The position numbers were made by a program, and so were the translations under genes. 46,305 bases of DNA from Gemmatimonadaceae bacterium (GTDB lineage Bacteria; Gemmatimonadota; Gemmatimonadetes; Gemmatimonadales; Gemmatimonadaceae). The first letter of the stretch is position 1. Each line of letters opens with the position of its first letter. Shown one piece after another: positions 7,653-36,331 of this stretch. The stretch is taken from positions 1-46,305 of the forward strand of contig JAXDME010000278.1 in assembly GCA_034666285.1 (NCBI GenBank). Direction: 5' to 3'. The notes beneath the pieces were generated by a model. It saw only the letters and a program-made list of their open reading frames with translations. It was not told the origin of the DNA and made no database searches.

Positions 7653-7856
7653 ATGATCAGGTCTCATCGAGGAACTCCATCGCGCATCCTCGGAATCCTC
7701 TCGGGGGGTCTCGCGGCGATCCTCGGGTTTCTCGCCTTCAACGTAATCGACGGCGTCTTCGGCTTCGGCAAGTCGCTCATCGGTCTCGCCGCTGGCATCG
7801 CAACGACGTTGCTGGTATTCACGCGCTCACCGCGGGGCCGCGACGCCGATGCATAA
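7653..7856 (+). CDS. Small two-TM membrane protein (67 aa)
   Basis: ATG 7653 follows the dehydrogenase stop. Two hydrophobic segments; the end overlaps the cydA start and it fills the gap in the operon. Confidence 0.55.
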   Translation: MIRSHRGTPSRILGILSGGLAAILGFLAFNVIDGVFGFGKSLIGLAAGIATTLLVFTRSPRGRDADA

Positions 7857-9258
7857 TCTCGATCCGCTGATCCTGGCACGAATACAGTTCGCGTTCACGG
7901 TGACTTTCCACATCATCTTCCCGACTATCTCAATCGGGCTCGCGCTGTTTCTGGCGATCGTGAAAGGCCTCTTTCTCAAGACGCGTGATCCGGTCTACCA
8001 GCAGATCTACAGATTCTGGCTCAACATCTTTGCGATGAGCTTCGCGATCGGCGTGGTCACCGGGATCGTGCTCTCGTTCCAGTTCGGGCTCACGTTCTCC
8101 AGGTTCGCGCAGATCGCCGGCCCCGTCATCGGACCGTTGATCGCGCTCGAAGTGCTGACTTCGTTCTTCCTCGAAGCCGGATTTCTCGGAATCATGCTGT
8201 TTGGGGAAGGCCGCGTTGGGCAGAAGCTTCACTTCTTCGCTACGTGCATGGTCGCGCTCGGCACCGTGCTTTCTTCCGCGTGGATCATGTCGGCGAACAG
8301 CTGGATGCAAACTCCAGACGGAGTCGCATGGGAGAACGGACGGCTAGTCGTCACCAACTGGTGGAAGGTTGTCGTCAACCCGTCGTGGCCTGTGAGGCTG
8401 CCCCACATGCTGCTGGCGGCCTACATCACGGCGTCGTTTCTCGTTTCCGGAGTCAGTGCGTGGTACCTGCTGAAAGGACGCGAGACTGTCTTTGCGCGGC
8501 GAACTCTGTCGCTCGCCATGGCGGCCGCGTGCATTCTGATCGCGACGCAGGTGATGATTGGCGATCGCCTGGGCGGCGTCATCGTGAAATATCAGCCGGC
8601 CAAGCTGCAAGCCGCCGAGGGGTGGTGGGACAAAACGACGCCATCGCCGACGCCATATCTGTGGGTGATCTGGCCCGATCAAAAGGCGCAGTTCAATCGG
8701 TTCGAGATGGGCACTCCGTACTTCGGCTCCATCTGGCTCACAAAAAGTTTGACGGGAAGCATCGGCGGTCTGCGCAACACTCCGGTCGCCGAGCAACCGA
8801 GGATGGTGCTCGTCTTCTACAGTTTCAAGCTGATGCTCGCGTTAGGGATGACCATGTTCGCGGTGGCGGTCACCTCGCTGTGGCTACGGTGGCACGGCCG
8901 GCTCTATTCGACGCGATGGTTCCTGCGCATTCTCGTGGTGATGACGCCGTCGGGCGTACTGGCAACGCTCGGCGGCTGGTACACCGCCGAGATCGGCCGC
9001 CAGCCCTGGGTGATCAACGGAATACTGCGCACCGCCGACGCTGTCTCGCCGGTGCCTGCGACGACACTGCTGAGCACGTTGATAACGTTCGTGTGCGTTT
9101 ATGCCGTGTTTTTCTTCGCGTTTCTGATCTTCACGCTGCGACTGATTCGTCGCGGGCCAGGCGGCCTGCCGGCTCACGCCCTTCCGTCGGGCTCGCTGAA
9201 GCGCGGACTCCGTCCTGAGATCGCCGGCGTGCAGCCGTACCTGGCGGGAGGGAAGTGA
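7849..9258 (+). CDS. cydA: Cytochrome bd-type quinol oxidase subunit I (short Q-loop, CioA-like)
   Basis: LARIQFA..FHIIF, FFLEAGFLG, ANSWMQTP, RLPHM, QPAKLQAAEG, EIGRQPW. Confidence 0.95.
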   Translation: MHNLDPLILARIQFAFTVTFHIIFPTISIGLALFLAIVKGLFLKTRDPVYQQIYRFWLNIFAMSFAIGVVTGIVLSFQFGLTFSRFAQIAGPVIGPLIALEVLTSFFLEAGFLGIMLFGEGRVGQKLHFFATCMVALGTVLSSAWIMSANSWMQTPDGVAWENGRLVVTNWWKVVVNPSWPVRLPHMLLAAYITASFLVSGVSAWYLLKGRETVFARRTLSLAMAAACILIATQVMIGDRLGGVIVKYQPAKLQAAEGWWDKTTPSPTPYLWVIWPDQKAQFNRFEMGTPYFGSIWLTKSLTGSIGGLRNTPVAEQPRMVLVFYSFKLMLALGMTMFAVAVTSLWLRWHGRLYSTRWFLRILVVMTPSGVLATLGGWYTAEIGRQPWVINGILRTADAVSPVPATTLLSTLITFVCVYAVFFFAFLIFTLRLIRRGPGGLPAHALPSGSLKRGLRPEIAGVQPYLAGGK

Positions 9259-10256
9259 CGATGAACCTTCCGCTGCTCTCGGCGCTGTTCATGTTGTTCG
9301 CCCTCGGGATCTACGTCGTTCTCGACGGTTTTGATCTTGGCGTCGGCGCGCTTCTGTTCGCACAGCGGGATCAACTGACGCGCGACCGGATGGTGGATGC
9401 GATTGCCCCGACGTGGGATGGAAACGAAACGTGGCTGGTGATGGCTGGCATCACGCTGCTCGCCGGATTCTCCATCGCCTACGGTATTCTCATTCCCGCG
9501 TTCTGCATCCCGGTAACAGCGATGGTTGTCGCGCTCGGAATGAGAGGCGTCTCTTTCGAATTCCGCCACAACAGCACCACGCTTCGCCGCCGGTGGGATG
9601 CAGTGTTCGCTGCGGGCTCACTCGTCGCAGCCCTGGCGCAGGGCGTGATCATCGGCGGATTGATTCAGGGTGTCGACATCGATCGAAACGAGTTTGTCGG
9701 AAGTCCGCTCGACACGTTCAGCCTGTTCACGCTTCTGACCGGAGTGACGGTTGTCGCCGGCTATGCCACGCTCGGGGCAGGCTGGCTTCGTCTCAAGGGA
9801 GAGGATGCGACGCGCACCTTTGCGAAAAGGCATCAGCGATGGCTGCCGCTGGCATTCCTTGGACTGACGATGATCACCAGCCTGGTCGCAGCAGCCGTGC
9901 AGCCCCGCCTGGTTGCGTCGTGGCCCGCCCACCGTGTCGCACTGTCGTGGTGTTTTATCACATTCATCACCTGCGCACTCGGGATCGCGTGGCTCGCACG
10001 TCGCGACGACGTCGATGATCGCATTGGATTCGGGCTCGCCCTCGCGATGATGCTGAGCGGAGTTGTCGCGCTCGGTATTTCGTTCTTCCCGAATGTCATT
10101 CCGTTCAGAATGAGTTTGTGGGACGCAGCCTCCGATCCGGAAACCCAGGAGTTCGTGCTCATCGGGGCTTTGATAGCCACGCCGGTCATACTCGGATACA
10201 CGAGTTTCGCGTATTGGGTTTTTCACGGAAGAACGCCGGCGGACGGATGGTATTGA
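9255..10256 (+). CDS. cydB: Cytochrome bd-type quinol oxidase subunit II
   Basis: YVVLDGFDLGVG, PTWDGNETWLV, RGVSFEFR, YWVFHG. GTGA overlap with cydA (alternative ATG 9261). Confidence 0.95.
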   Translation: MTMNLPLLSALFMLFALGIYVVLDGFDLGVGALLFAQRDQLTRDRMVDAIAPTWDGNETWLVMAGITLLAGFSIAYGILIPAFCIPVTAMVVALGMRGVSFEFRHNSTTLRRRWDAVFAAGSLVAALAQGVIIGGLIQGVDIDRNEFVGSPLDTFSLFTLLTGVTVVAGYATLGAGWLRLKGEDATRTFAKRHQRWLPLAFLGLTMITSLVAAAVQPRLVASWPAHRVALSWCFITFITCALGIAWLARRDDVDDRIGFGLALAMMLSGVVALGISFFPNVIPFRMSLWDAASDPETQEFVLIGALIATPVILGYTSFAYWVFHGRTPADGWY

Positions 10257-17687: not shown

Positions 17688-19334
17688 TTACCGGGCCATC
17701 ACGCTGTCCCGCGCGAGCACGGTACCGGAGACGTCGGCCATCGACTCGTAATACGAGACGAACCGGTCCGTCTCGGGAGCGCGCTGCAGACGGAGATTCT
17801 GCGCCCACCGAAAGCCAATAGGCTGGTACCAGAGCTCCACCAGGACCTTGAAAGGCCCCTGTCCTCGCGGGACGTCGATGTTGTAGCGGGTCAGAGCCGA
17901 GCCGCCGACGAACGCGGGATCGTTCGCCGCGTCACCTACGACGGCGATGTCGCGATCGGCCGTTGTCTTGTCGAAGCCGCGCGGCAGAATGCGACTGTCC
18001 TTCAGGTAGCCTATACCAGACACGATTCCGGTCGTGACGATGCCGTATGGATCGCGCATGATCGACTCGTAGATCTGCACCTGACCGGATTGCGTGATTT
18101 CGCGATAGTGCGGTTCGTACCTGAGGCGATCGTCATCGTTGTCGTTGCCGACAATTCGACCGGTCCGGGTCAGAGCGCCCGACTCAAAGACTATTGCGCC
18201 AGATCGGTCGCGCACGACAACGTGCAGCCAGGCGCGACGCGAGGGATAAGCCGTCGGGAGCTTGTGGCCGCTCAGGTTCGTCACCTCCACATCTGCCACG
18301 AGATGTCCCGAAGCGGCGTGCCCCGGTCGTACCGTCACCGTCGCAGCTTGCGCCAGGATCGCGCGCGTCTGCGACATCGCGAGATCGAGCTCCTGCGGGA
18401 ATGCCTCGACTGCCAGCTCCGCGCGGTAACGATTGAGCATGCCGAGCACGAAGAAATTTCCGCCTGGGAACCAGTGCCGCCGCACGTCGGGCCGCGACTG
18501 GCCACGAATCGCCGTGATGGGAACACTGTCGCCCGCGGCGACGACGCGCGGCATATGACACGACTGGCAGCTTTGCTCGTTGCGGTACGCGCTGTGTTTC
18601 CACTCGAGAAAGGGCATCTGCTCGGGCAATGTGCCGACACGGCGACCCGTCGAATCCAGGCTCGGTGTGTACAGCGTGTGACACGTCGCGCACAGCTCGG
18701 ATTGGCGAATATGTTCGCTCTGGGTCGGAACGAATCCGCTCGACGAGTGCATGATCGTCGTGTGTCCGCGATCCACCGCGTAAGGGCCGAAGATCGGCCG
18801 GCGACCCACGGGCGTCGTGGTGTCGATCACGAAGCCGCCGTTGAAGCTGGAGGAATCGCCGAGGCGCTCTGTTCCGATCTGGTGGCACATGGTGCAGGAA
18901 ACGCCATCCGCGGCGAGGCTGTCGAGATGATTGGTCCCTCCCCTGGTTGGGAACCGGTCGAAGACCAGTCCCCGGCCACCCGACGCGCGCGCGGCGAAGC
19001 GCTGCATGGGCATGTGGCAGGTGGAGCAGTCGTCCTGGATCAGAGCGCTCGCGGTCGGGTGATCGAGAACCTCGCGCCGCACGGACGCTTGCCAGTACGG
19101 ATCGCGTGACGAGTTGGCCATCATCGACGCGCGCCAGTCGAATCCGATCGACGCATCCCGTCCCGAGGGCGTGGTGAGACCGTTGTGACACGCGAGGCAC
19201 CGATCTGCAGTGAGGAAATGCGCCGGCCCAGCCTCACCCCCACTCGGCGCGGTGGTGTAGCCCATCGTCGCGATGAGCACGAGGATCGCGGCCACCGTCG
19301 CGACGGGCGCGCCGAGGCGTCTCAGTGCTCGCAT
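17688..19334 (-). CDS. Exported pentaheme c-type cytochrome
   Basis: Five CxxCH motifs (CLACH, CSTCH, CTMCH, CATCH, CQSCH). Signal peptide from ATG 19334 (MRALRRLG...). Heme-free C-terminal domain with GHKLPT. Confidence 0.85.
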   Translation of the reverse strand: MRALRRLGAPVATVAAILVLIATMGYTTAPSGGEAGPAHFLTADRCLACHNGLTTPSGRDASIGFDWRASMMANSSRDPYWQASVRREVLDHPTASALIQDDCSTCHMPMQRFAARASGGRGLVFDRFPTRGGTNHLDSLAADGVSCTMCHQIGTERLGDSSSFNGGFVIDTTTPVGRRPIFGPYAVDRGHTTIMHSSSGFVPTQSEHIRQSELCATCHTLYTPSLDSTGRRVGTLPEQMPFLEWKHSAYRNEQSCQSCHMPRVVAAGDSVPITAIRGQSRPDVRRHWFPGGNFFVLGMLNRYRAELAVEAFPQELDLAMSQTRAILAQAATVTVRPGHAASGHLVADVEVTNLSGHKLPTAYPSRRAWLHVVVRDRSGAIVFESGALTRTGRIVGNDNDDDRLRYEPHYREITQSGQVQIYESIMRDPYGIVTTGIVSGIGYLKDSRILPRGFDKTTADRDIAVVGDAANDPAFVGGSALTRYNIDVPRGQGPFKVLVELWYQPIGFRWAQNLRLQRAPETDRFVSYYESMADVSGTVLARDSVMAR

Positions 19335-20515
19335 CCCTGACACCAGCCTTTCCAGCCTTGCATTAGCGGTCCGTCCGCGATGTCCCACAACAAATAGGCA
19401 CGAGCGAGCGTCGAGCGCGTGTCGCGCTGCGTCAGCGGGATGTCGGCACCCAGGCCCAGGCGAACGTGCTGTAGCGCGCTAAGCGAGACCTGGAATTGCG
19501 GCACAACGCTCCAGTCGACCGGCGCACCTACGCCGAGGTCGTGCGACGCAGTCAGCTCGACAATCGGCGACCAGATGCGCGTGATCGGTCCGAGGCCGAA
19601 AGTCTTGCCGAGCGCGCCGCCGAAGTATGTCGACCGCGGCGCGCGAGACAAATCGACTGGCACTGTCAGACCGCCCTGAAACTGGAAGAAACCTCGTCCG
19701 GGGAATAGCTGAGCGCCGAGGATGAAGCCCTCGAACGCCGTTGTGCCGGTACCGAGTCCAATTGTTCGGTCGCCCGTTGGAAGAACTACGCCCGCCAGTC
19801 CGCTCACGATCGTGCCGCTGTTCAGGTTGGCGACGAACACGTGCTTGCCTGCGATAGAGATGTCACCCATTCCACCCGCCACCGAAGCGCCATTCGGACG
19901 CGCGACGAACCCGAACGGGATGTCGAGCTCGAGCTGACTGCGGATCCCGAAACGTTTCTCGTAGATGAGATGATTCTCGTCCGACCTCGGCGCGCGCGTT
20001 GCGAATGCGCTCGTCGCGACCCACTCATCCTCCGGAAATGCTTTCTCGGTGGTCTGCGCGAGCGCCACGTTGAACTCGCCGAGCGGATATCGACGATCCT
20101 TACACAAAGTCCGCATGTACGCGGTGACGTTTCGAATCTGCTGCGGGGTGAGCAGGTCGCGGAACGCAGGCATGATCCGGCTGAAGCCGCGCACCGGCCC
20201 GCCATCGCGAATGACCGCCGCCCAATCCACCGTCATCTCGGCAGTGGTGGCAACGCAGTCGTTGAATACTGGAAGTGGCTGCGCAAATCCCACTGTGCTT
20301 CGCGGAGCGCCCGCCCCGTCGAGGCCGTGGCACGCGGCGCAGGTCGTGCGAAAAATCTCCTCTCCTGCTTTCGGGTCGCCGAAGGGGGCGCCGATCGCAC
20401 CGCTCGCTCCCACGAGCAACGCGATAACCGGCACCGCCGCGACGAACAAAATCGCGGCGATGCGCATCGGCAACCAATATATGATTACAGCCAGGTAGGT
20501 TCGCATGTGTTCCAT
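19322..20515 (-). CDS. Monoheme cytochrome c fused to a predicted outer-membrane beta-barrel-like domain
   Basis: Signal peptide (start possibly ATG 20467); CAACH...MPAF class I cytochrome c; then ~230 aa of amphipathic strands with GMGDISIAGK and LPTGD...GLGTG. The barrel assignment is inferred. Confidence 0.7.
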   Translation of the reverse strand: MEHMRTYLAVIIYWLPMRIAAILFVAAVPVIALLVGASGAIGAPFGDPKAGEEIFRTTCAACHGLDGAGAPRSTVGFAQPLPVFNDCVATTAEMTVDWAAVIRDGGPVRGFSRIMPAFRDLLTPQQIRNVTAYMRTLCKDRRYPLGEFNVALAQTTEKAFPEDEWVATSAFATRAPRSDENHLIYEKRFGIRSQLELDIPFGFVARPNGASVAGGMGDISIAGKHVFVANLNSGTIVSGLAGVVLPTGDRTIGLGTGTTAFEGFILGAQLFPGRGFFQFQGGLTVPVDLSRAPRSTYFGGALGKTFGLGPITRIWSPIVELTASHDLGVGAPVDWSVVPQFQVSLSALQHVRLGLGADIPLTQRDTRSTLARAYLLWDIADGPLMQGWKGWCQGCEH

Positions 20516-20561
20516 TGCGAATGGCGAATGGAAGTGTGCGCACCACGAGGATCGGACACTA

Positions 20562-20577
20562 TCCTACTTTGGTAGGA
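20562..20577. promoter_or_regulatory. Putative TF site TCCTAC-TTTG-GTAGGA
   Basis: Perfect 6-bp inverted repeat with a 4-bp spacer, in the 87-bp gap upstream of the cytochrome-barrel gene. Same geometry as the other sites. Confidence 0.55.
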
Positions 20578-20602
20578 CGGGTCAGCAAGACGAAGCCGAT
20601 CG

Positions 20603-22027
20603 CTACGGAGGAGTTACCTCGATCGTTCCCATCATGCCCTTGTCTTCGTGCGAGAGTATGTGGCAGTGAAAGACGAACCTGCCGACGATCAACGGGTCGG
20701 TGAACGGGATGATTACCTTCACCTCGCCGCCGATTGGGACATCGACGATGTCGCGATGGTCGTCGACGGGTTGCGCAACGCCGTTGATCTCCACCAGCTG
20801 AAAAGGGCCCTGGTGGATGTGAAAGGTGTGCAGCTCGTCCGCCGAGTTGCGGATCGTCCACTCCTCGATTGCGCCGAGCTTGACGCGGACGTCGGTCCTG
20901 CCCGGATCGAAGGTCCTGCCGTTGATGAACAGAGTGTCACCATCCTTCGTTTCCGAGAACACGATGGTGCGCCGGTTGGTGACCTTTCCCCGGAGATCTT
21001 CGACGGACAGCAGCGCGGGAGGGAGGAGCACCGGCGTGGCCGGCGGTCCTTCCACGCGCACAGTTGCCATGACCGTACCGGCATACTGATTTCCTTCGCG
21101 CCCGGTGTCGACGTCTCCCGTCCGGAGCACGTAGACTCCCGGAGCACCGGCCGTCACGAGAACCTCCGCGCGGGCGCCCGGCGACAGCCTGACCGTGTCT
21201 GCCGTCGCTATTCTCGTCCGACGGTTCCCGTCGCGGGCCACCAGCCGAAACTGGTGGCTGTCGAGCGTGAGCACGAAGTAGAGATCGGCGGACAGATTCC
21301 CGATCCGCCACAGCTCGGTCGCGCCCGGGCGGAGCACGATCACCGGCTTTACCACGCCGTTGATGGTGCGGATGACGCGCTTGCCGATGTGGGTGATCAC
21401 GACGCGTTCATTTTCGAGCTGAAGACCTTTGAGCAGTAACAGGCGCTCCGGCACGTGGCGAAGTGTAGGGAACGAATCCAGGAGCCCATCGACAATCAGC
21501 GCTCCTGCCATACCGTTTCGGACCTGCTCGTCGGAGAAACCGTGAGTGTGCGGGTGATACCAGAAAAGTCCCGGGGGTTGATTGCCCGGAATCCGGATCT
21601 CGTAGTCCTGCGCTTGTCCCGGCGCGACGCGCAGGAAGACGTTATCAGAGTTGCCGCGCGGCGAAACCGTCAGGCCGTGAGTGTGCAGGTTCGTCGGCTC
21701 GGCAAGCGCGTTCGTCAGGCGAAGCCGGATAGTATCGCCCGGACGGACTCGCAGCGTTGGTGGTGCATAGAGCCCGTTGTAGGCCATGAGCGACGCGCGA
21801 TGTCCCGCTACCGTGACCAACGACAGCTTGGGTGTCAGCGAAGTTCGCAGCACGCCGGCCCTGCTGTTTATGACCGGCGGTTCACGAAACGTCTCCGCCG
21901 GCGCGTGCGGCTCGCGGTCATTGTTTGAAGCGGAGCTGCAGCCAGTCACGGCTAAGGCGACGAGCAGGAACACAGATCGAGTGAGTCCAACTTTTCGTCG
22001 CGACCTGATGGACACACACCTTTCCAA
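20603..22027 (-). CDS. Three-domain multicopper oxidase, lipoprotein
   Basis: All four Cu motifs present: NLHTHG, WYHPH, HTFHIH, HCHILSHEDKGMM. Lipobox AVTG-C. Exact start uncertain. Confidence 0.93.
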   Translation of the reverse strand: MERCVSIRSRRKVGLTRSVFLLVALAVTGCSSASNNDREPHAPAETFREPPVINSRAGVLRTSLTPKLSLVTVAGHRASLMAYNGLYAPPTLRVRPGDTIRLRLTNALAEPTNLHTHGLTVSPRGNSDNVFLRVAPGQAQDYEIRIPGNQPPGLFWYHPHTHGFSDEQVRNGMAGALIVDGLLDSFPTLRHVPERLLLLKGLQLENERVVITHIGKRVIRTINGVVKPVIVLRPGATELWRIGNLSADLYFVLTLDSHQFRLVARDGNRRTRIATADTVRLSPGARAEVLVTAGAPGVYVLRTGDVDTGREGNQYAGTVMATVRVEGPPATPVLLPPALLSVEDLRGKVTNRRTIVFSETKDGDTLFINGRTFDPGRTDVRVKLGAIEEWTIRNSADELHTFHIHQGPFQLVEINGVAQPVDDHRDIVDVPIGGEVKVIIPFTDPLIVGRFVFHCHILSHEDKGMMGTIEVTPP

Positions 22028-22044
22028 TCAGGGTTCTGACGAGC

Positions 22045-22593
22045 TCAAACGGGCGCCAATTCCGCGCGACGTCCTGCTTCAAACAGGAACCAGGAGCGTC
22101 GCTCGGTCTCGTCCACCCAGACCTCGATGAGGCTGGCGGTCGCGATGTCACCGTGCTCGTCGCACACATTGTGGGCCTGTCGCAAACTTCCCGCGAGCGT
22201 CCTGTTGTCCTCGGCGAGCTCGGCGAGCATGTCCGATGGCTCGACGTAGTCTGCATCATTATCCGATAGGCGCTGGGTGCGGGCGATATGGCCGATCGAT
22301 CTGATGGTGAGCCCGCCGACCTTTCGAACCCGTTCCGCGATCGGGTCGGTGATGGCGAAGATCTGATCGGCCTGCTCATCCAGCAGCAGATGGTAGTCGC
22401 GAAAGTGCGGTCCGCTCATGTGCCAGTGGAAATTCTTTGTCTTTATGTAGAGTGCGAATACATCGGCAAGAATGCCGTTCATTGCGGCCGTGATATCTCG
22501 CGTTGCGATCTGCTTGAGGTCGGTCGGCGTCGACAGCACCGCATCCCGCCTATGGCGCAGAGCTTCTGTTGTCAGCGATAGTGTCATTGTCAT
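22045..22593 (-). CDS. dps: Dps / DNA starvation-stationary phase protection ferritin-like protein
   Basis: KNFHWHMSGPHFRDYHLLLDEQ, DPIAERVR, ETERRSWFL. GAGGGA RBS. Confidence 0.93.
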   Translation of the reverse strand: MTMTLSLTTEALRHRRDAVLSTPTDLKQIATRDITAAMNGILADVFALYIKTKNFHWHMSGPHFRDYHLLLDEQADQIFAITDPIAERVRKVGGLTIRSIGHIARTQRLSDNDADYVEPSDMLAELAEDNRTLAGSLRQAHNVCDEHGDIATASLIEVWVDETERRSWFLFEAGRRAELAPV

Positions 22594-29222: not shown

Positions 29223-29495
29223 TCAGTATTCAGCGAACGCGTCGTCCGGGTAGCAATACAACCAACTCTCGCCGGACTCCGCCGACGCAATCACCGGATG
29301 TTTTGTCGCGCGCGCGTGTTTGCTCGCGTGCTTGTTCGGTGAAGAGTCGCAGCACAGCGTCTTGTCGCACTCCTGGCAGGTTCGCAGATGAACCCAGGTA
29401 GCGCCGATCTTGACGCACTCTTCACACTCGTGACGCTTGGCGGTTTTGACGGTTGTGATCCCGGCGATATGAGCACATGGGGCGTTAGGAGTCAT
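29223..29495 (-). CDS. Stand-alone UBP-type zinc finger protein
   Basis: CAH...CEEC...WVHLRTCQEC...CCDSSPNKHASKH...HP...WLYCYPDD. Confidence 0.88.
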   Translation of the reverse strand: MTPNAPCAHIAGITTVKTAKRHECEECVKIGATWVHLRTCQECDKTLCCDSSPNKHASKHARATKHPVIASAESGESWLYCYPDDAFAEY

Positions 29496-29560
29496 GATCA
29501 GTCAGAGTTGGTTGGATTTCCGCGTAACGATGGATTACTCGGATAGTTGGTCATCACAAT

Positions 29561-30340
29561 CTAGACCGAACCGCCGGTAGGACCGAAGCGCTCCGTCTTG
29601 ATGCGCGCAGGTTCGTGGCCAAGCTCGACCAGAGCCTGAGCGACGGATTCAACCAGAGGAGTCGGACCGCAGACGAATACCTGCGGCTTTTCTCTCGGCG
29701 GCCAGGCGACCTCTTCGAGCATGGCGCGATCGATTCGTCGCTTGAATCCGTTCCATCCTTCCGGCTGCTCGCGCGTCAGCGTATGCCTCACTTCGAGCGA
29801 CGTGTCTGCCTTCACCAGACGCGCCAGCTCGTCCCGATAAATCACTTCGTCCCATCCCCGCGACGAGTACAACAGCCGCGCTGGCACTCCATGCCTCTGC
29901 GCCTCGGGCGATCCGATCACGGCGTTGCGGTGGCGCAGCATCGCCATCAACGGGACGATTCCCGATCCTCCGGCAACGAGGAAGAGCGGCCCGCCAAGCG
30001 AGACGTCCCAGACGAAATACCCACCGATGGGACCTCGCAGCTCGAGTGTGTCTCCCGCACGAAGCTCCTCTGACAGGTAAGGAGAAACCTCTCCGTCCTC
30101 GAGCTGTTCCACTGTCAGCGATAACCGAGTCTCTTCCGGTGCGGACGCGATCGAATAACTGCGCTCTGCCTGGTAGCCATCCTCCGCGGTGAGTCGAACG
30201 TCTACGTGCTGTCCGGCACGATGCCCAGGCCAACCGGGCACATCCAGTACGAGCGTCCGTGTTCGTGGCGTTTCCGGGACCACGTCGAGAACTGTGGCGA
30301 GCCGCCAGGTAATTCTTGGCGTGGTGACATCCGGAATCAC
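29561..30340 (-). CDS. FNR-like ferredoxin reductase (FAD/NAD(P)-binding)
   Basis: RSYSIAS, GEVSPYL, RGPIGG, AGGSGIVP, VCGP, ERFG. The GTG start overlaps the upstream TGA. Confidence 0.88.
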   Translation of the reverse strand: MIPDVTTPRITWRLATVLDVVPETPRTRTLVLDVPGWPGHRAGQHVDVRLTAEDGYQAERSYSIASAPEETRLSLTVEQLEDGEVSPYLSEELRAGDTLELRGPIGGYFVWDVSLGGPLFLVAGGSGIVPLMAMLRHRNAVIGSPEAQRHGVPARLLYSSRGWDEVIYRDELARLVKADTSLEVRHTLTREQPEGWNGFKRRIDRAMLEEVAWPPREKPQVFVCGPTPLVESVAQALVELGHEPARIKTERFGPTGGSV

Positions 30341-30957
30341 TCGTCGCCGGCGTATCGCTGCTCGCGCCACGGATCACCATAGTTGTGGTAACCAAGCGAT
30401 TCCCAGAATCCGGGCGCATCGTTTTTCATCAGGCGCAGCTCACGCACCCACTTGGCGCTCTTCCAGAAATAGAGGTGCGGCACGAGCAGACGCGCAGGCC
30501 CGCCGTGCTCCGCCGGCAGCGGCGCGCCCTCGTACATGAACGCGATCCACGCTTTTCCCCCGGTCACATCGGCGAGCGGAAGATTCGTGGTGTAGCCACC
30601 GTCGCACGTGGCGAGCACGTACGGCGAAGGCTCGACTCCTTTCGCTGCGCCTTCCGAGAGAAGAGTATCGACCGAGATACCTTCCCAAACTGTTCCGAAC
30701 TTCGACCACTTGGTGACACAGTGGATGTCAGTGGTGGTGGTCTGACGTGGCAGCGCAATGAATTCGTCCCAGGTCCAGCGCGCAGTGCGACCGTCGGCTC
30801 CCTGGAGTGTGAATGTCCAGTCGGAGAGCGGTGAATGCGGCGTCGGCCCCGCTGAGAGAACCGGGAAGTCCCGCGTCTCGTACTGACCGGGCGGGAGACG
30901 CGCGGCCGTCGCGTCCGGTTGCCTTTTTCCTCGAAATCCCCGAGACACGGGTGGCAT
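30337..30957 (-). CDS. Sulfite-oxidase-like molybdopterin oxidoreductase (cytoplasmic)
   Basis: RLPPGQ, DIHCVTKWS (Mo-ligand Cys), GYTTNLPL, EHGGPARL, YFWKSAKW, GFWE..GYH. Confidence 0.9.
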   Translation of the reverse strand: MPPVSRGFRGKRQPDATAARLPPGQYETRDFPVLSAGPTPHSPLSDWTFTLQGADGRTARWTWDEFIALPRQTTTTDIHCVTKWSKFGTVWEGISVDTLLSEGAAKGVEPSPYVLATCDGGYTTNLPLADVTGGKAWIAFMYEGAPLPAEHGGPARLLVPHLYFWKSAKWVRELRLMKNDAPGFWESLGYHNYGDPWREQRYAGDE

Positions 30958-30960
30958 CGT

Positions 30961-32637
30961 CTATTCCTGCAGCGCCTGATGCACGAAGGAAATCGCTATC
31001 GAGCCCTCTCCAACCGCCGACGCAACTCGCTTGATATTGCCCGCGCGCACGTCGCCCACCGCGAATACTCCAGGTCGGCTCGTCTCGAGTAGATGCGGTT
31101 GTCTGGCGAGCGGCCACTTCGCGTCGGTCAGATCTTCACGAGAAAGATCGGGACCGGTCTTGATGAATCCCTGCGGGTCGAGCGTCACACAACCCCTGAG
31201 CCAGTCCGTGGTCGGCGCCGCGCCGGTCATGACGAACACGTGCTGGATGTCGCGAGTCTCCGCCGGACTGTGATCCGTTCGCCACTGAACACGCTCGAGA
31301 TGACCATTGCCCTCGAGTGCCGTGATCTCGGTGCAGGTTCGGAGGGCGATCGCCGGATTCTCTTCGATGCGGCGGATCAGGTACCGCGACATCGTGTCCG
31401 CCAGACTCTTCGATCTGATCAGCATGTGCACCATCTTAGCCGTCTGCGAGAGAAACACGGCCGCCTGCCCGGCGGAATTGCCTCCGCCAACTACTATTAC
31501 TTCTTCGCCCTCGCACAGCTGCGACTCGATGAACGTCGCGCCGTAGTAAATGCCGGCTCCCTCGAAGCGCGTGATGTTCTCGAGCGGAAGCTTTCGGTAT
31601 TCCGCGCCCGTGGCGATGACCACTGTTCGCGCCGGTACGCGCGGTCCGTTATCGATCTCGATCGTGTAGGCCTTTCGCGTACAATCAAGGCGAGTCGCAC
31701 CCTCGGAGATCACCACCTCGGCGCCGAATTTCTGCGCCTGCGTGTAGGCGCGAGACGTCAGCTCCTGACCCGAAATACCCGATGGAAAGCCGAGGTAGTT
31801 CTCGATCCTGGAGCTCGATCCGGCCTGTCCGCCTGGGGCGTTCGATTCGAGAACGAGGACATCCAGTCCTTCTGAGGCGGCGTAGACAGCGGCCGCTAGT
31901 CCCGAGGGTCCCGCGCCAACGATGACCACGTCGCGGACATGTGTCTGGTCGATCGAATCGTTGAAGCCGAGGCAGTCGGCGATTTCGCGATTGGTCGGAT
32001 TGCGAAGGACAGTTCGGCCACGACAGATCAGGACCGGAATCTCCTCGATGGTAAACTGGAAGCGATCGAGGAGTTGTTGAACGTCGCCATCCGTGTCCGG
32101 GTCGATGGATGCGTAAGGATGTGCGTTCCGCGTCAGGAATTCCTTGATGCGAAGAGTGTCGGACGAGTGATTCGAGCCGACCAGCACGACGTCGCCGTAT
32201 CCACCGGCGATCAGCTGTGCTCGGCGAAGAAGAAAAGCGCGCACGAAGATCTCGCTTAATTCCGCGTCCGTCTGGACGAGTGCCAGAAGCTGTTCGCGGT
32301 CCACTTCGATCACTTCGCCAGGCTCCCCGACGCGGAGGGTGACGAGAGCGCGGCGACCCGAGAGCATCGTGACCTCACCGGTGAACTGGCCAGGTCGAAT
32401 GGTGACGACTGTTTCCTCTCCGTCACCCGTCACGCGGATTGCTTCGATAGTCCCCGCGATTACGACAAAGAAGGTTGGAGTCGGCTTTCCCGCTGCAGCA
32501 AGTATTTCGGCGCGCTCGATGTGCCGCCGTCGACCGTGCGACGCGACACGCTCGATCTGCTCTGGGGTGAGTCCTGGAAAAGTCTGATCGACCTCCACTA
32601 CAGGTCGAGACGGAGCCGCGGCGATGGGCGTCGTCAT
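30961..32637 (-). CDS. cNMP-binding domain + thioredoxin-reductase-like FAD oxidoreductase
   Basis: N-terminal cNMP fold (GQFTGE); VGAGPSG, GGQA..SSRIENYLGFP, VGGGNSAGQ, FAVGDVR...KRVASAVGEG. Confidence 0.9.
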   Translation of the reverse strand: MTTPIAAAPSRPVVEVDQTFPGLTPEQIERVASHGRRRHIERAEILAAAGKPTPTFFVVIAGTIEAIRVTGDGEETVVTIRPGQFTGEVTMLSGRRALVTLRVGEPGEVIEVDREQLLALVQTDAELSEIFVRAFLLRRAQLIAGGYGDVVLVGSNHSSDTLRIKEFLTRNAHPYASIDPDTDGDVQQLLDRFQFTIEEIPVLICRGRTVLRNPTNREIADCLGFNDSIDQTHVRDVVIVGAGPSGLAAAVYAASEGLDVLVLESNAPGGQAGSSSRIENYLGFPSGISGQELTSRAYTQAQKFGAEVVISEGATRLDCTRKAYTIEIDNGPRVPARTVVIATGAEYRKLPLENITRFEGAGIYYGATFIESQLCEGEEVIVVGGGNSAGQAAVFLSQTAKMVHMLIRSKSLADTMSRYLIRRIEENPAIALRTCTEITALEGNGHLERVQWRTDHSPAETRDIQHVFVMTGAAPTTDWLRGCVTLDPQGFIKTGPDLSREDLTDAKWPLARQPHLLETSRPGVFAVGDVRAGNIKRVASAVGEGSIAISFVHQALQE

Positions 32638-34598: not shown

Positions 34599-35164
34599 CG
34601 GGTCAGCGTCGCTGTTCCTGGGCGGAGGGTGACTCGCTGATGCGAGACTATCACGACGCGGAATGGGGCGTCCCGCAGCGCGATGCGCGCATGCTGTGGG
34701 AAATGCTGATGCTGGAAGGCTTCCAGGCCGGCTTGGCCTGGATCACCGTTCTCAAAAAACGAGAAGCTTTTCGCAAGGCGTTCGCCGGCTTCTACCCGAA
34801 TAAGGTCGCTCGATTTGGAAAGGCGGATATCAACCGCCTGATGGGTGATGCGGGGATCATCCGCGCCCGGGCCAAGATCGAAGCGACAATCAGGGGCGCT
34901 CAGATCTTCTGCGAGATGGAAGACAGGGGCGAGAGCTTCGCTGACTTCTGCTGGTCCTTTACTGACCACAAAGTGTTGAAGGGCAACGGTCGCACGGTGA
35001 CCACATCTACGCCGCTGTCCGAGAAGATCTCGCGCGAGATGAAACACCGCGGCTTCAAGTTCGTCGGCCCGACCATCGTCTACGCCTGGATGCAGGCTGT
35101 CGGCATTGTCAACGACCACTCGGCCAGCTGCTTCCGTCGTGCTCAGGTCGCGCGGAGGGAATAG
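34595..35164 (+). CDS. tag: DNA-3-methyladenine glycosylase I
   Basis: RCSWA, YHDAEWG, LEGFQAGLAWITVLKKR, GFKFVGPT, NDHSASC. Confidence 0.93.
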   Translation: MTGQRRCSWAEGDSLMRDYHDAEWGVPQRDARMLWEMLMLEGFQAGLAWITVLKKREAFRKAFAGFYPNKVARFGKADINRLMGDAGIIRARAKIEATIRGAQIFCEMEDRGESFADFCWSFTDHKVLKGNGRTVTTSTPLSEKISREMKHRGFKFVGPTIVYAWMQAVGIVNDHSASCFRRAQVARRE

Positions 35165-35201
35165 TCAGATTAAGATGAAAAGCACCTCTGGAGGAGTAAA
35201 A

Positions 35202-35753
35202 ATGACAGAGCCAGACCTCGATGGAAGAGCCGCAACAATCCTTCCCGCCGGCACCCCCGCCCCCGATTTCGCGCTGAATTCCGCGCCCGACAAAACGATT
35301 CGTCTGAGCGAGCTTCGCGGGCATCCAGTCATCCTCGTGTTCTATCCGGCCGACTGGAGTCCCGTTTGCGGCGACCAGGTAGCGCTCTACAACGAGATTC
35401 TCTCGGAATTTCGCGAGTACGGCGCCGAGCTAGTCGGGATATCGGTGGATAGCGCCTGGTGCCATGCTGCGTTCGCAAAGGACCGGAACCTCCGGTTCCC
35501 GCTCCTCGCCGACTTTGAGCCCAAGGGTGCTGTCGCGCGGTTGTACGGTGCGTACCGCCAGCGGGACGGCACTAGCGAGCGCGCTCTCTTCGTGCTCGAC
35601 GGCGACGGCATCATTCGGTGGAGCTACTGCTCGCCGATCGGTGTGAATCCCGGCGCCGATGGAATTCTGAACGCTCTCGAATCGATCGCCGGTAAGTCTT
35701 CTTCGACCAAGGCTGAATCCTTCCGTACGGATTCGACGGAGGTGCGCCCATGA
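35202..35753 (+). CDS. Peroxiredoxin / redoxin (AhpC-TSA, AhpE-like)
   Basis: APDF, FYPADWSPVC (PxxxSxxC), GISVDS, ERALF. GGAGGA RBS. Confidence 0.88.
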   Translation: MTEPDLDGRAATILPAGTPAPDFALNSAPDKTIRLSELRGHPVILVFYPADWSPVCGDQVALYNEILSEFREYGAELVGISVDSAWCHAAFAKDRNLRFPLLADFEPKGAVARLYGAYRQRDGTSERALFVLDGDGIIRWSYCSPIGVNPGADGILNALESIAGKSSSTKAESFRTDSTEVRP

Positions 35754-36331
35754 GCGACGGCAAGCTCACTCCACCCGTTAGCGACAAGGATCACGCCGTG
35801 GGTCCCGATGATGCTCCGATCACATTGGTCGAGTACGGTGATTACGAGTGCCCCTACTGCGGCATGGCACACCCGATTGTAAAGTCGGTGCAGCGTGCAT
35901 TAGGGGAACAGCTCCGTTTCGTCTTCCGCAATTTCCCGCTCGCCGAGGCACACCCGCATGCGCGGCTCGCGGCACAGGCAGCTGAAGCTGCTGGTGCGCA
36001 GGGGCGATTCTGGGAGATGCATGACATGCTGTTCGAAAATCAGACTGCGCTCGAGCCTGGAGATATCGTCGGCTACGCGAAATCCATCGGGCTCGACGTC
36101 ACCCGGTTCGAGCGGGATCTGGAAGCAGGGACATTCATGAAGAAAGTGCGCGACGATTTTCGAAACGGCGTCCGAAGCGGCGTAAACGGAACGCCGACTT
36201 TCTTTGTGAACGGAGAGCGCTACGACGGATCGTGGGCGAACGAGGAAGGATTCATTCGCGCGCTAAGGCTCCACAACGTCGATGACTCTGCCCGCGTTGA
36301 TCGGACCAGCGACAGTCTGACGTCGACCTGA
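35750..36331 (+). CDS. DsbA-like thioredoxin-fold protein (no signal peptide)
   Basis: EYGDYECPYC, FRNFPL..HPHA, GVNGTPTFFVNG. ATGA overlap. Confidence 0.9.
   Translation: MSDGKLTPPVSDKDHAVGPDDAPITLVEYGDYECPYCGMAHPIVKSVQRALGEQLRFVFRNFPLAEAHPHARLAAQAAEAAGAQGRFWEMHDMLFENQTALEPGDIVGYAKSIGLDVTRFERDLEAGTFMKKVRDDFRNGVRSGVNGTPTFFVNGERYDGSWANEEGFIRALRLHNVDDSARVDRTSDSLTST

Follow-up and report, generated by a model that had tools for sequence, protein, structure and literature searches.

A cytochrome-barrel fusion protein and a pentahaem cytochrome encoded side by side: a conserved, putative outer-membrane redox unit from a Gemmatimonadaceae bacterium

Contig JAXDME010000278.1 of a Gemmatimonadaceae bacterium (assembly GCA_034666285.1) was analysed over its full length of 46,305 nucleotides (the window); the genome it belongs to measures 2.9 Mb and is 86% complete. 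On its minus strand lie two overlapping genes whose products are supported as a conserved, undescribed outer-membrane redox unit. The first gene (19322..20515; 397 amino acids (aa) from ATG 20515) encodes an exported, monohaem class I cytochrome c, fused to a predicted 12-stranded outer-membrane barrel. The second (17688..19334; 548 aa) encodes an exported pentahaem cytochrome c, made of a haem domain and a C-terminal immunoglobulin (Ig)-like domain. We tentatively read the pair as a Cyc2-like electron port, which would oxidise a small solute and pass the electrons inward, and we give this reading slightly less than an even chance. The initial annotation had grouped both genes with a multicopper oxidase (MCO) and a Dps gene as one envelope-spanning metal-redox module.

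The pairing of the two genes is conserved over a large phylogenetic distance. One genome per species was scanned, with patterns derived from a Gemmatimonadota-rich alignment, and the 60 pattern matches gave 34 barrel loci. A pentahaem gene is adjacent to the barrel gene in all 34 of them, 33 times in tandem and once divergently. The loci span the Gemmatimonadota, Acidobacteriota, Myxococcota, Desulfarculaceae and Gammaproteobacteria, summarised as five phyla. The host family, sampled with 301 genomes, has the barrel in 22 and the pentahaem protein in 23; all 22 carry both, adjacent in 21, and the exceptions are located at contig ends. These tallies include the unpublished genome G298 (without it, 21 and 22 of 300), and the set overlaps the 34 loci, so the two counts are not independent. 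In the genomes of the same genus, neither gene was found (0/8).

The two reading frames share 13 bp, and this overlap is kept in all 19 Gemmatimonadota loci examined. In 12 more distant tandem loci, a plausible pentahaem start, identified by eye, is positioned close to the barrel stop. This arrangement suggests translational coupling of barrel and pentahaem protein. A conserved third gene was also considered and rejected, as recurring neighbours are confined to close kin and the flanks vary freely over the 34 loci. Single cases are a sulphur-transport gene (PF04143) adjoining the pair in a Desulfarculaceae record (L023:6331-7608) and NorB-like, SCO1 and FGE-sulfatase genes around the pair in a Steroidobacteraceae record (L027:5580-11111). 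At L017, L028, L034 and L056, the barrel or pentahaem gene is split by a frameshift, maybe an assembly error or a sign of decay.

The cytochrome-barrel protein, numbered from here on from ATG 20467 (381 aa), starts with a signal peptide, read by eye. The cytochrome domain (residues 30-125; 20093..20380, minus strand), delimited by profile matches and invariant columns, contains the single CxxCH of the protein, CAACH at residues 43-47. Its profile matches CcoP and cytochrome c6 domains. The Met of the sequence 'MPAF' (Met99) is aligned to theirs and is the likely distal ligand; the MP motif is present in 87/87 barrels. Two additional conserved cysteines, Cys71 and Cys122, likely form a disulfide. 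The domain is a class I cytochrome, and its haem would have His/Met ligation and a fairly high potential.

A linker and predicted plug follow (residues 126-147, with the sequence 'TEKAFPED'; 20027..20092, minus strand), recognised by conservation and by alignment to the COG4313 channel Pput2725. With a mean conservation of 0.70, this is the most conserved of the larger segments. For residues 148-362 (19382..20026, minus strand), the model and its fold matches point to a 12-stranded beta-barrel of the FapF/COG4313 (PF13557) type. AlphaFold2, run on a 104-sequence alignment (mean pLDDT 82.9, pTM 0.81), predicts a helical domain and then 12 long strands over residues 148-362, the two segments at 196-214 being counted as one. 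This bears out the initial view of a monohaem cytochrome joined to a barrel, and the block pLDDT of the strands is mostly >90. FapF (E 2e-8) and Pput2725 (E 1e-5) occupy the top ranks of the Foldseek search. An independent aligner agrees for the predicted model: Z 23.1, rmsd 2.5 and 223 aligned residues for FapF, and Z 22.2, rmsd 2.7 and 217 aligned residues for Pput2725, including the plug segment of 4RL8. Residues 139-363 of the model align with 4RL8 2-268, the part from 139 on corresponding to the lumen-occluding N-terminus of Pput2725. The PF13557 profile itself does not match the window protein; among 36 diverse homologues, nine match it with E <= 0.01, the best at 4e-7.

An even number of strands puts both termini in the periplasm, and the cytochrome would consequently cap the inner mouth of the barrel, with its haem predicted on the periplasmic side. 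Conservation is 0.58 on this putative periplasmic face versus 0.40 in the outer loops. The family is broad, comprising 355 clusters at 50% identity with E <= 1e-30. In comparison with the COG4313/SphA/TcpY/FapF barrels (PF13557; 4RL8, 5O65), the predicted fold and the aligned plug segment are alike. The barrel described here differs in being fused to a c-type cytochrome, in its low identity (~12%) and in being unlinked to aromatic catabolism or amyloid genes.

The pentahaem protein, numbered from ATG 19334, contains five CxxCH motifs and no further Cys, behind a hydrophobic N-terminal export signal (by eye). The genome encodes cytochrome c assembly genes (PF01578, five matches above the cut-off), and the CxxCH motifs can therefore be matured. 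The model (pLDDT 76.4, pTM 0.82) matches the pentahaem c552 of T. tepidum (5ZE8), with a Foldseek E of 3e-13 and a Z of 22.4 (rmsd 3.3, 350 aligned residues). Five CxxCH and an Ig-like domain in the 5ZE8 fold, the feature of the PHC family, are thus present in the window protein. This family includes ExtKL/MccSep (PMC11976967). Sequence searches recover T. tepidum c552 and MccSep only weakly; the link to MccSep relies on two weak sequence matches (E 6e-4 and E 8e-3), and MccSep is not among the fold-search matches of the model. With the PHC proteins (T. tepidum c552 5ZE8, MccSep/ExtKL 9WT8, the PHCs of cable bacteria and PtdA), the window protein shares the five CxxCH, the helical haem domain followed by an Ig-like sandwich, a GH-x-x-P motif and periplasmic export. 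Porin genes are found near those of ExtKL and PtdA as well: PtdA is a reported homologue of T. tepidum c552 and its gene adjoins a porin gene (bioRxiv 2023.11.21.568154). On the other hand, the window protein is ~100 residues longer, and its neighbouring porin carries a haem of its own. In contrast to the ext and ptd clusters, the pair has no linked cytochrome b, Rieske or decahaem gene. The ptdABCDEFG set (tetrahaem, decahaem and ferric-reductase-like genes) is likewise not found at the pair, as no third gene recurs over the 34 loci. A distant pentahaem relative at L213:4204-6831 is fused to a cytochrome P460 domain and has six CxxCH.

A barrel gene beside the gene of a periplasmic redox protein is also the layout of MtrAB, MtoAB, PioAB, PCC3, PCC4 and PcoAB; the porin-cytochrome and porin-MCO systems PCC3, PCC4 and PcoAB were described by He et al. 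2017 (PMC5566968). Following MtrAB, the pentahaem protein could insert into the barrel and conduct electrons to or from minerals. The neighbouring porin and multihaem genes would fit such a wire, and so would the PHC-family proteins that are linked to porins (ptdAB) and resemble archaeal nanowire cytochromes (PMC11976967). However, the predicted barrel size largely refutes it, with 12 strands versus 26 in MtrB. The lumen of an unplugged COG4313 channel measures only ~10-12 Å, and the barrel here is predicted to be plugged. The pentahaem protein is globular with an Ig-like domain, and no surface cytochrome is linked to the pair. We consider a wire extremely improbable, and the envelope-spanning character initially assigned to the locus is unlikely, as a plugged barrel of 12 strands cannot hold a haem wire. 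In contrast to MtrAB, MtoAB, PCC3 and PCC4, there is no 26-strand barrel, decahaem protein or conserved inner-membrane protein.

The relation to MccSep deserves a closer look at the residue level. MccSep requires both a selenocysteine and, as ligand of its haem 2, a Cys (bioRxiv 2025.11.18.688581), and the window protein has neither. No counterpart was found for C239, the distal Cys ligand of haem 2, the aligned region being E238/Q239. At MccSep position 325 there is no Sec or Cys either: the corresponding residue 363 is Tyr in 27 and Phe in 6 of the 33 aligned sequences. Over this set of 33 pentahaems, which reaches down to 51% identity, M195, H287, H357 and H409 are invariant, and M72 is present in all 32 rows covering it. 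M72 is situated at the His of the MccSep W-x-x-S-x-H motif; M195 adjoins the position of MccSep H201, and the neighbouring H196 is not conserved. Invariant Met72 and Met195 thus stand where MccSep has His in the aligned motifs. According to this motif-based mapping, two haems would be His/Met-ligated and of fairly high potential. E238, Q239, R366 and R367 are also invariant, at MccSep active-site positions. Among the conserved His, H92, H208 and H409 are spare and could fill the fifth axial site, so that haem 2 is not necessarily open.

The barrel protein ends in a periplasm-side tail (residues 363-381; 19325..19381, minus strand) with the terminal sequence WCxGCEH, which is read across the pentahaem start codon (window 19322-19351). 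This CxxC extension was seen in Gemmatimonadota loci only, in 19 of the 20 listed, and is absent from 14 loci of other groups. The tail was considered as a source of the thiols missing with respect to MccSep and set aside, since it is restricted to Gemmatimonadota and the overlap with the start codon dictates its second Cys (TGC in 19/19). The first Cys is free in its codon (12 TGC, 7 TGT).

The pentahaem protein is not the only partner of the barrel. In a sample of 301 Acidobacteriota genomes (the phylum of a Terriglobia record), the barrel was found in 45, with 48 matches. A pentahaem gene lies beside 24 of these 48 barrels, a gene for a cupredoxin-like protein beside 15, and neither beside nine; two of the nine are at contig ends, with the pentahaem gene of the genome on another contig. 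The alternative partner is co-oriented, exported and ~250 residues long. Its type-1 copper motif, His...Cys-x-x-His-x-Trp-Met, is kept in 10 of 11 proteins inspected, and one of them weakly aligns with blue-copper domains (E 1e-3 to 7e-3). No cupredoxin-like partner occurs in the 34 pentahaem loci, and no examined locus contains both partners. On a quick tree of 87 barrels, which omits two partial rows, one duplicate and the partial L187, the cupredoxin label needs at least four changes. The best 25 of 34 Acidobacteriota pentahaem matches all share their genome with a barrel, and eight distant pentahaems (30-44% identity) have no barrel of the same family nearby. A barrel without pentahaem protein is common and a close pentahaem protein without barrel is rare; hence, the pentahaem protein depends on the barrel more than the reverse.

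The host itself encodes a homologue of the cupredoxin partner (E 1e-57), located between a dihaem cytochrome gene and coxB/coxA (cytochrome c oxidase subunits II and I). This protein (L207:1620-2408, on contig C241 of G000) combines a cupredoxin with a carboxypeptidase-regulatory-like part, has no curated family match and is likely an undescribed, oxidase-linked copper carrier. At L202:4462-7241, a barrel gene is flanked on both sides by cupredoxin-like genes, one copy having Thr for the axial Met.

These partners bear on a different possibility, in which the pentahaem protein is an enzyme supplied with substrate through the barrel, an arrangement proposed for ExtI and ExtKL/MccSep of Geobacter. 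A small inorganic substrate, such as a sulphur, nitrogen or selenium oxyanion or peroxide, would be turned over at haem 2, and the barrel haem would act as a relay. The fold family shared with the polysulfide reductase MccSep (bioRxiv 2025.11.18.688581) points in this direction, together with a conserved pocket formed by E238/Q239 (at MccSep C239), Tyr/Phe363 (at U325) and R366/R367. Deletion of ExtI impairs selenite and tellurite reduction (PMC5877670), a sulphur-transport gene (PF04143) adjoins the pair at one locus, and close pentahaem proteins are almost never found without the barrel, as in the 25 best Acidobacteriota matches. However, half of the Acidobacteriota barrel loci (24/48) lack the pentahaem gene, often with a protein of the copper-carrier type, without evident catalytic site, in its place. 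The two residues essential in MccSep are missing, and the spare H92, H208 or H409 could close the fifth axial site. An enzyme is unlikely on balance, though the main rival of the electron port described below, and it can be combined with the electron port if the pentahaem protein discharges its electrons at a catalytic haem of its own.

In layout, the pair resembles Cyc2 without being a member of that group. Both have a signal peptide, a single N-terminal CxxCH, a C-terminal outer-membrane barrel and a haem predicted on the periplasmic side. Cyc2 has a 16-stranded OprO/OprP-type barrel, whereas the one found here is of the 12-stranded FapF/COG4313 type and follows a class I cytochrome domain of full size, in which a Met is the likely ligand. 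A fixed partner gene, for a pentahaem protein or a cupredoxin, is a further difference, and the hosts are mostly uncultured soil bacteria rather than demonstrated iron oxidisers. Cyc2 is paired with rusticyanin, and the blue-copper partner of the barrels recalls that pairing. The motif AXPXFAR[Q/K][T/Y] upstream of CxxCH, a defining feature of Cyc2 (Keffer et al. 2021, PMC8406198), occurs in 0/104 and 0/36 barrel homologues, and no Cyc2-named model was matched in the Pfam and NCBIfam scans. The initial annotation was therefore right to separate the locus from the MtrAB and Cyc2 types, given its 12 strands, the missing decahaem protein and the missing Cyc2 motif. Cyc2, reviewed in PMC13741234, is the only fused single-haem cytochrome-porin found in the literature searched. 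Neither the fusion nor the pair is described in that literature, including the portions consulted of PMC13741234 and PMC13264449, most subscription journals and supplements being outside the search; an electron route like that of the pair was found in no paper searched.

In the Cyc2-like port that we prefer, a small dissolved reductant would enter the barrel. With its haem at the inner mouth and a narrow, plugged lumen, the protein cannot wire minerals, so the substrate has to come in. It would be oxidised by the haem at the periplasmic mouth, as in Cyc2, where a periplasm-side haem oxidises the solute entering the pore (PMC8406198); Met ligation of the barrel haem would suit such an oxidation. 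The electron would then be handed to the pentahaem protein by a presumed direct contact of the two proteins. As the partner is either a multihaem or a respiratory-type blue-copper protein, the barrel haem would be the reacting site and the partner the electron acceptor. The flow would be directed inward, its end point being O2, reached by way of respiration, or a catalytic haem within the pentahaem protein. As donors, chelated Fe(II) or Mn(II) would be the most plausible, along with small soil organic matter fragments of phenolic or quinol type. These fragments are considered because a role as channels for hydrophobic aromatics has been proposed for the COG4313 barrels.

Several points weigh against this port. 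Only motifs and partners indicate its substrate and direction. The polar residues E238, Q239, R366 and R367, all invariant in the pentahaem protein, are more in keeping with an enzyme than with a simple carrier. In the barrel model, confidence is lower for the cytochrome domain (block pLDDT 46-88), and the barrel tree is a quick version with long branches. The Desulfarculaceae are an anaerobic family, and with one pair locus there, O2 cannot always be the sink. In addition, JGI metagenome contigs of 14271, 16290, 24229 and 24569 bp appear with identical sizes under the relatives of the MCO and those of the pair. Finally, the plug may close the barrel lumen, by analogy with Pput2725, whose N-terminal segment plugs the lumen from the periplasm (PMC4493636).

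The plug also bears on a third possibility: an uptake or detoxification channel, in which the haem would be a redox gate, a sensor or a reducer of metal chelates for release, recharged by the partner without energy being conserved. COG4313 barrels are plugged uptake channels, the pair is patchy (22/301 family genomes, 0/8 of the same genus), and in the window its surroundings include genes for efflux, Dps, thioredoxin-like proteins and sensor kinases. Over the 34 loci, the pair has no linked inner-membrane redox gene. But a five-haem partner is costly for simple gating, and genes for transporters, regulators or catabolism do not recur at its side. We hold this to be quite unlikely.

The two further genes of the initial module precede the pair. 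The MCO (20603..22027, minus strand) is a three-domain, laccase-like protein with all copper ligands and a probable lipoprotein; the other gene encodes a Dps/ferritin-like protein (22045..22593, minus strand; PF00210, E 4e-25). All four open reading frames are on the minus strand. With starts at TTG 22027, ATG 20515 and ATG 19334, the reported spacings hold to the base pair: gaps of 17 bp and 87 bp, then an overlap of 13 bp. The alternative MCO starts GTG 22015 and GTG 21973 would widen the first gap, between Dps and MCO. The initial assignments of Dps, of the MCO with its copper ligands and lipobox-like motif, and of a pentahaem protein with five CxxCH were confirmed. The three Cu-oxidase domains contain the ligands H115/H117, H158/H160, H400/H403/H405, H454-C455-H456, H460 and M465, and a lipobox-like VTG-C, read from the sequence, is placed at Cys30. 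Met residues are located at positions 81, 173, 320, 465 and 466 (only four internal Met), without a CueO-type Met-rich insert. The protein falls below the NCBIfam cut-offs for CueO (139.5 vs 525 bits) and CopA (82.9 vs 479 bits). It thus differs from PcoAB, being far under the CopA/PcoA cut-off and not conserved beside the barrel. The initial annotation had named grouping with ordinary laccases beforehand as evidence against the module, and the best solved relatives are indeed stand-alone laccases (E 7e-82 to 4e-79), including the Thermus thermophilus enzyme. With the latter (2XU9; full-length match, E 4e-79), the MCO shares three cupredoxin domains and full T1/T2/T3 ligands; it differs in being a probable lipoprotein and in lacking the Met-rich loop visible in the alignment to 6WCN.

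If the four genes were one metal-oxidation system, the type-1 copper of the MCO would be an O2-linked sink and Dps would store iron. Their common orientation and short gaps, the contigs of equal size and the pairing of the barrel family with type-1-copper proteins elsewhere speak for it. Conservation, however, stops at the pair: the synteny check that had been called for upheld the adjacency of barrel and pentahaem genes (34/34) and not that of MCO and Dps. The MCO, Dps and cydAB are found in 0/34 pair loci (upstream sequence of at least 3.9 kb being available in 29). Conversely, the pair occurs in 0/89 MCO loci, a set made up of nine family loci and the best 80 among 553 confirmed matches in metagenomes; 69 of the 89 have at least 600 bp downstream. 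Of the ten family genomes among 301 with a similar MCO (E <= 1e-60), the host alone has the pair. We judge a four-gene system very unlikely, and a link to cydAB, initially suggested as cytochrome bd O2 sink, is rejected.

In the 89 MCO loci, Dps is present three times, in convergent orientation, and the usual neighbours are DUF4136 (12/89) and sensor kinases (16/89), like those elsewhere in the window. This variety indicates that the MCO belongs to a loose, reshuffled gene pool. As for the four contigs of identical size, the cluster representatives of barrel and pentahaem protein are 86-88% identical in these matches and the MCOs 75-77%. Contigs of 11815, 11887, 12036 and 12811 bp with close pair relatives have no match among the 120 MCO representatives listed. 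The shared sizes hint that, in the nearest relatives only, MCO and pair have remained on one stretch, with the reservation that equal contig sizes in bp can coincide by chance. At 1e-20, no MCO match was obtained in five pair-bearing genomes of other phyla, a search without positive control that is not counted as evidence. MCO and Dps are ordinary by themselves; they adjoin the barrel-pentahaem unit within a reshuffled stress/redox island, and the unit does not require them.

The GC (guanine plus cytosine) content of the contig (61.4%) is close to that of the genome (60.6%), and the barrel, pentahaem and MCO proteins all have their nearest named relatives in the Gemmatimonadota. A scan of the region for promoters and terminators gave 0 promoter-like and three terminator-like sites, which corresponds to the chance level. 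The cydAB genes (7849-10256) are on the opposite strand, ~7.4 kb away, past a 5.9-kb sensor-kinase gene. Besides cydAB, the host genome encodes an ActA/QrcA-like pentahaem protein and aa3-type oxidase subunits. The pair is part of a run of stress/redox accessory genes (229-27324), which contains an RND efflux set, a GSDH-like propeller, cydAB, a CrtC-like lipocalin, a 1970-aa kinase-AAA-GAF-PAS-histidine kinase, a DUF4136 lipoprotein, two response regulators and two sensor kinases. These gene types reappear in varying order around the MCO relatives, like a reshuffled island. Further along, genes for cNMP-binding thioredoxin-reductase-like, molybdopterin oxidoreductase, ferredoxin-reductase-like and zf-UBP proteins are co-oriented at 29223-32637, and AhpC and DsbA-like genes are found at 35106-36331.

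A wider view, which we consider doubtful, is that abundant soil heterotrophs (Gemmatimonadota, Acidobacteriota and Myxococcota) may possess a second, independently evolved class of fused cytochrome-porins, built on the 12-stranded COG4313 barrel. Electrons from dissolved metals or reduced humics and phenolics would pass via an exchangeable partner to O2, and the adjacent laccase would be a recent O2-linked sink in this host. Cyc2 serves as a marker of iron oxidation. If true, the fusion to an unrelated barrel, present in ~7% of the host-family genomes and 15% of the sampled Acidobacteriota genomes, would represent an unrecognised surface redox capacity in dominant soil bacteria. The pair would also provide a small system of two proteins, suited to expression and assay. 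Its pentahaem protein offers a natural His-to-Met version of the MccSep fold, free of Cys ligand and Sec, and could serve as a probe of the role of the large pentahaem family in aerobes.

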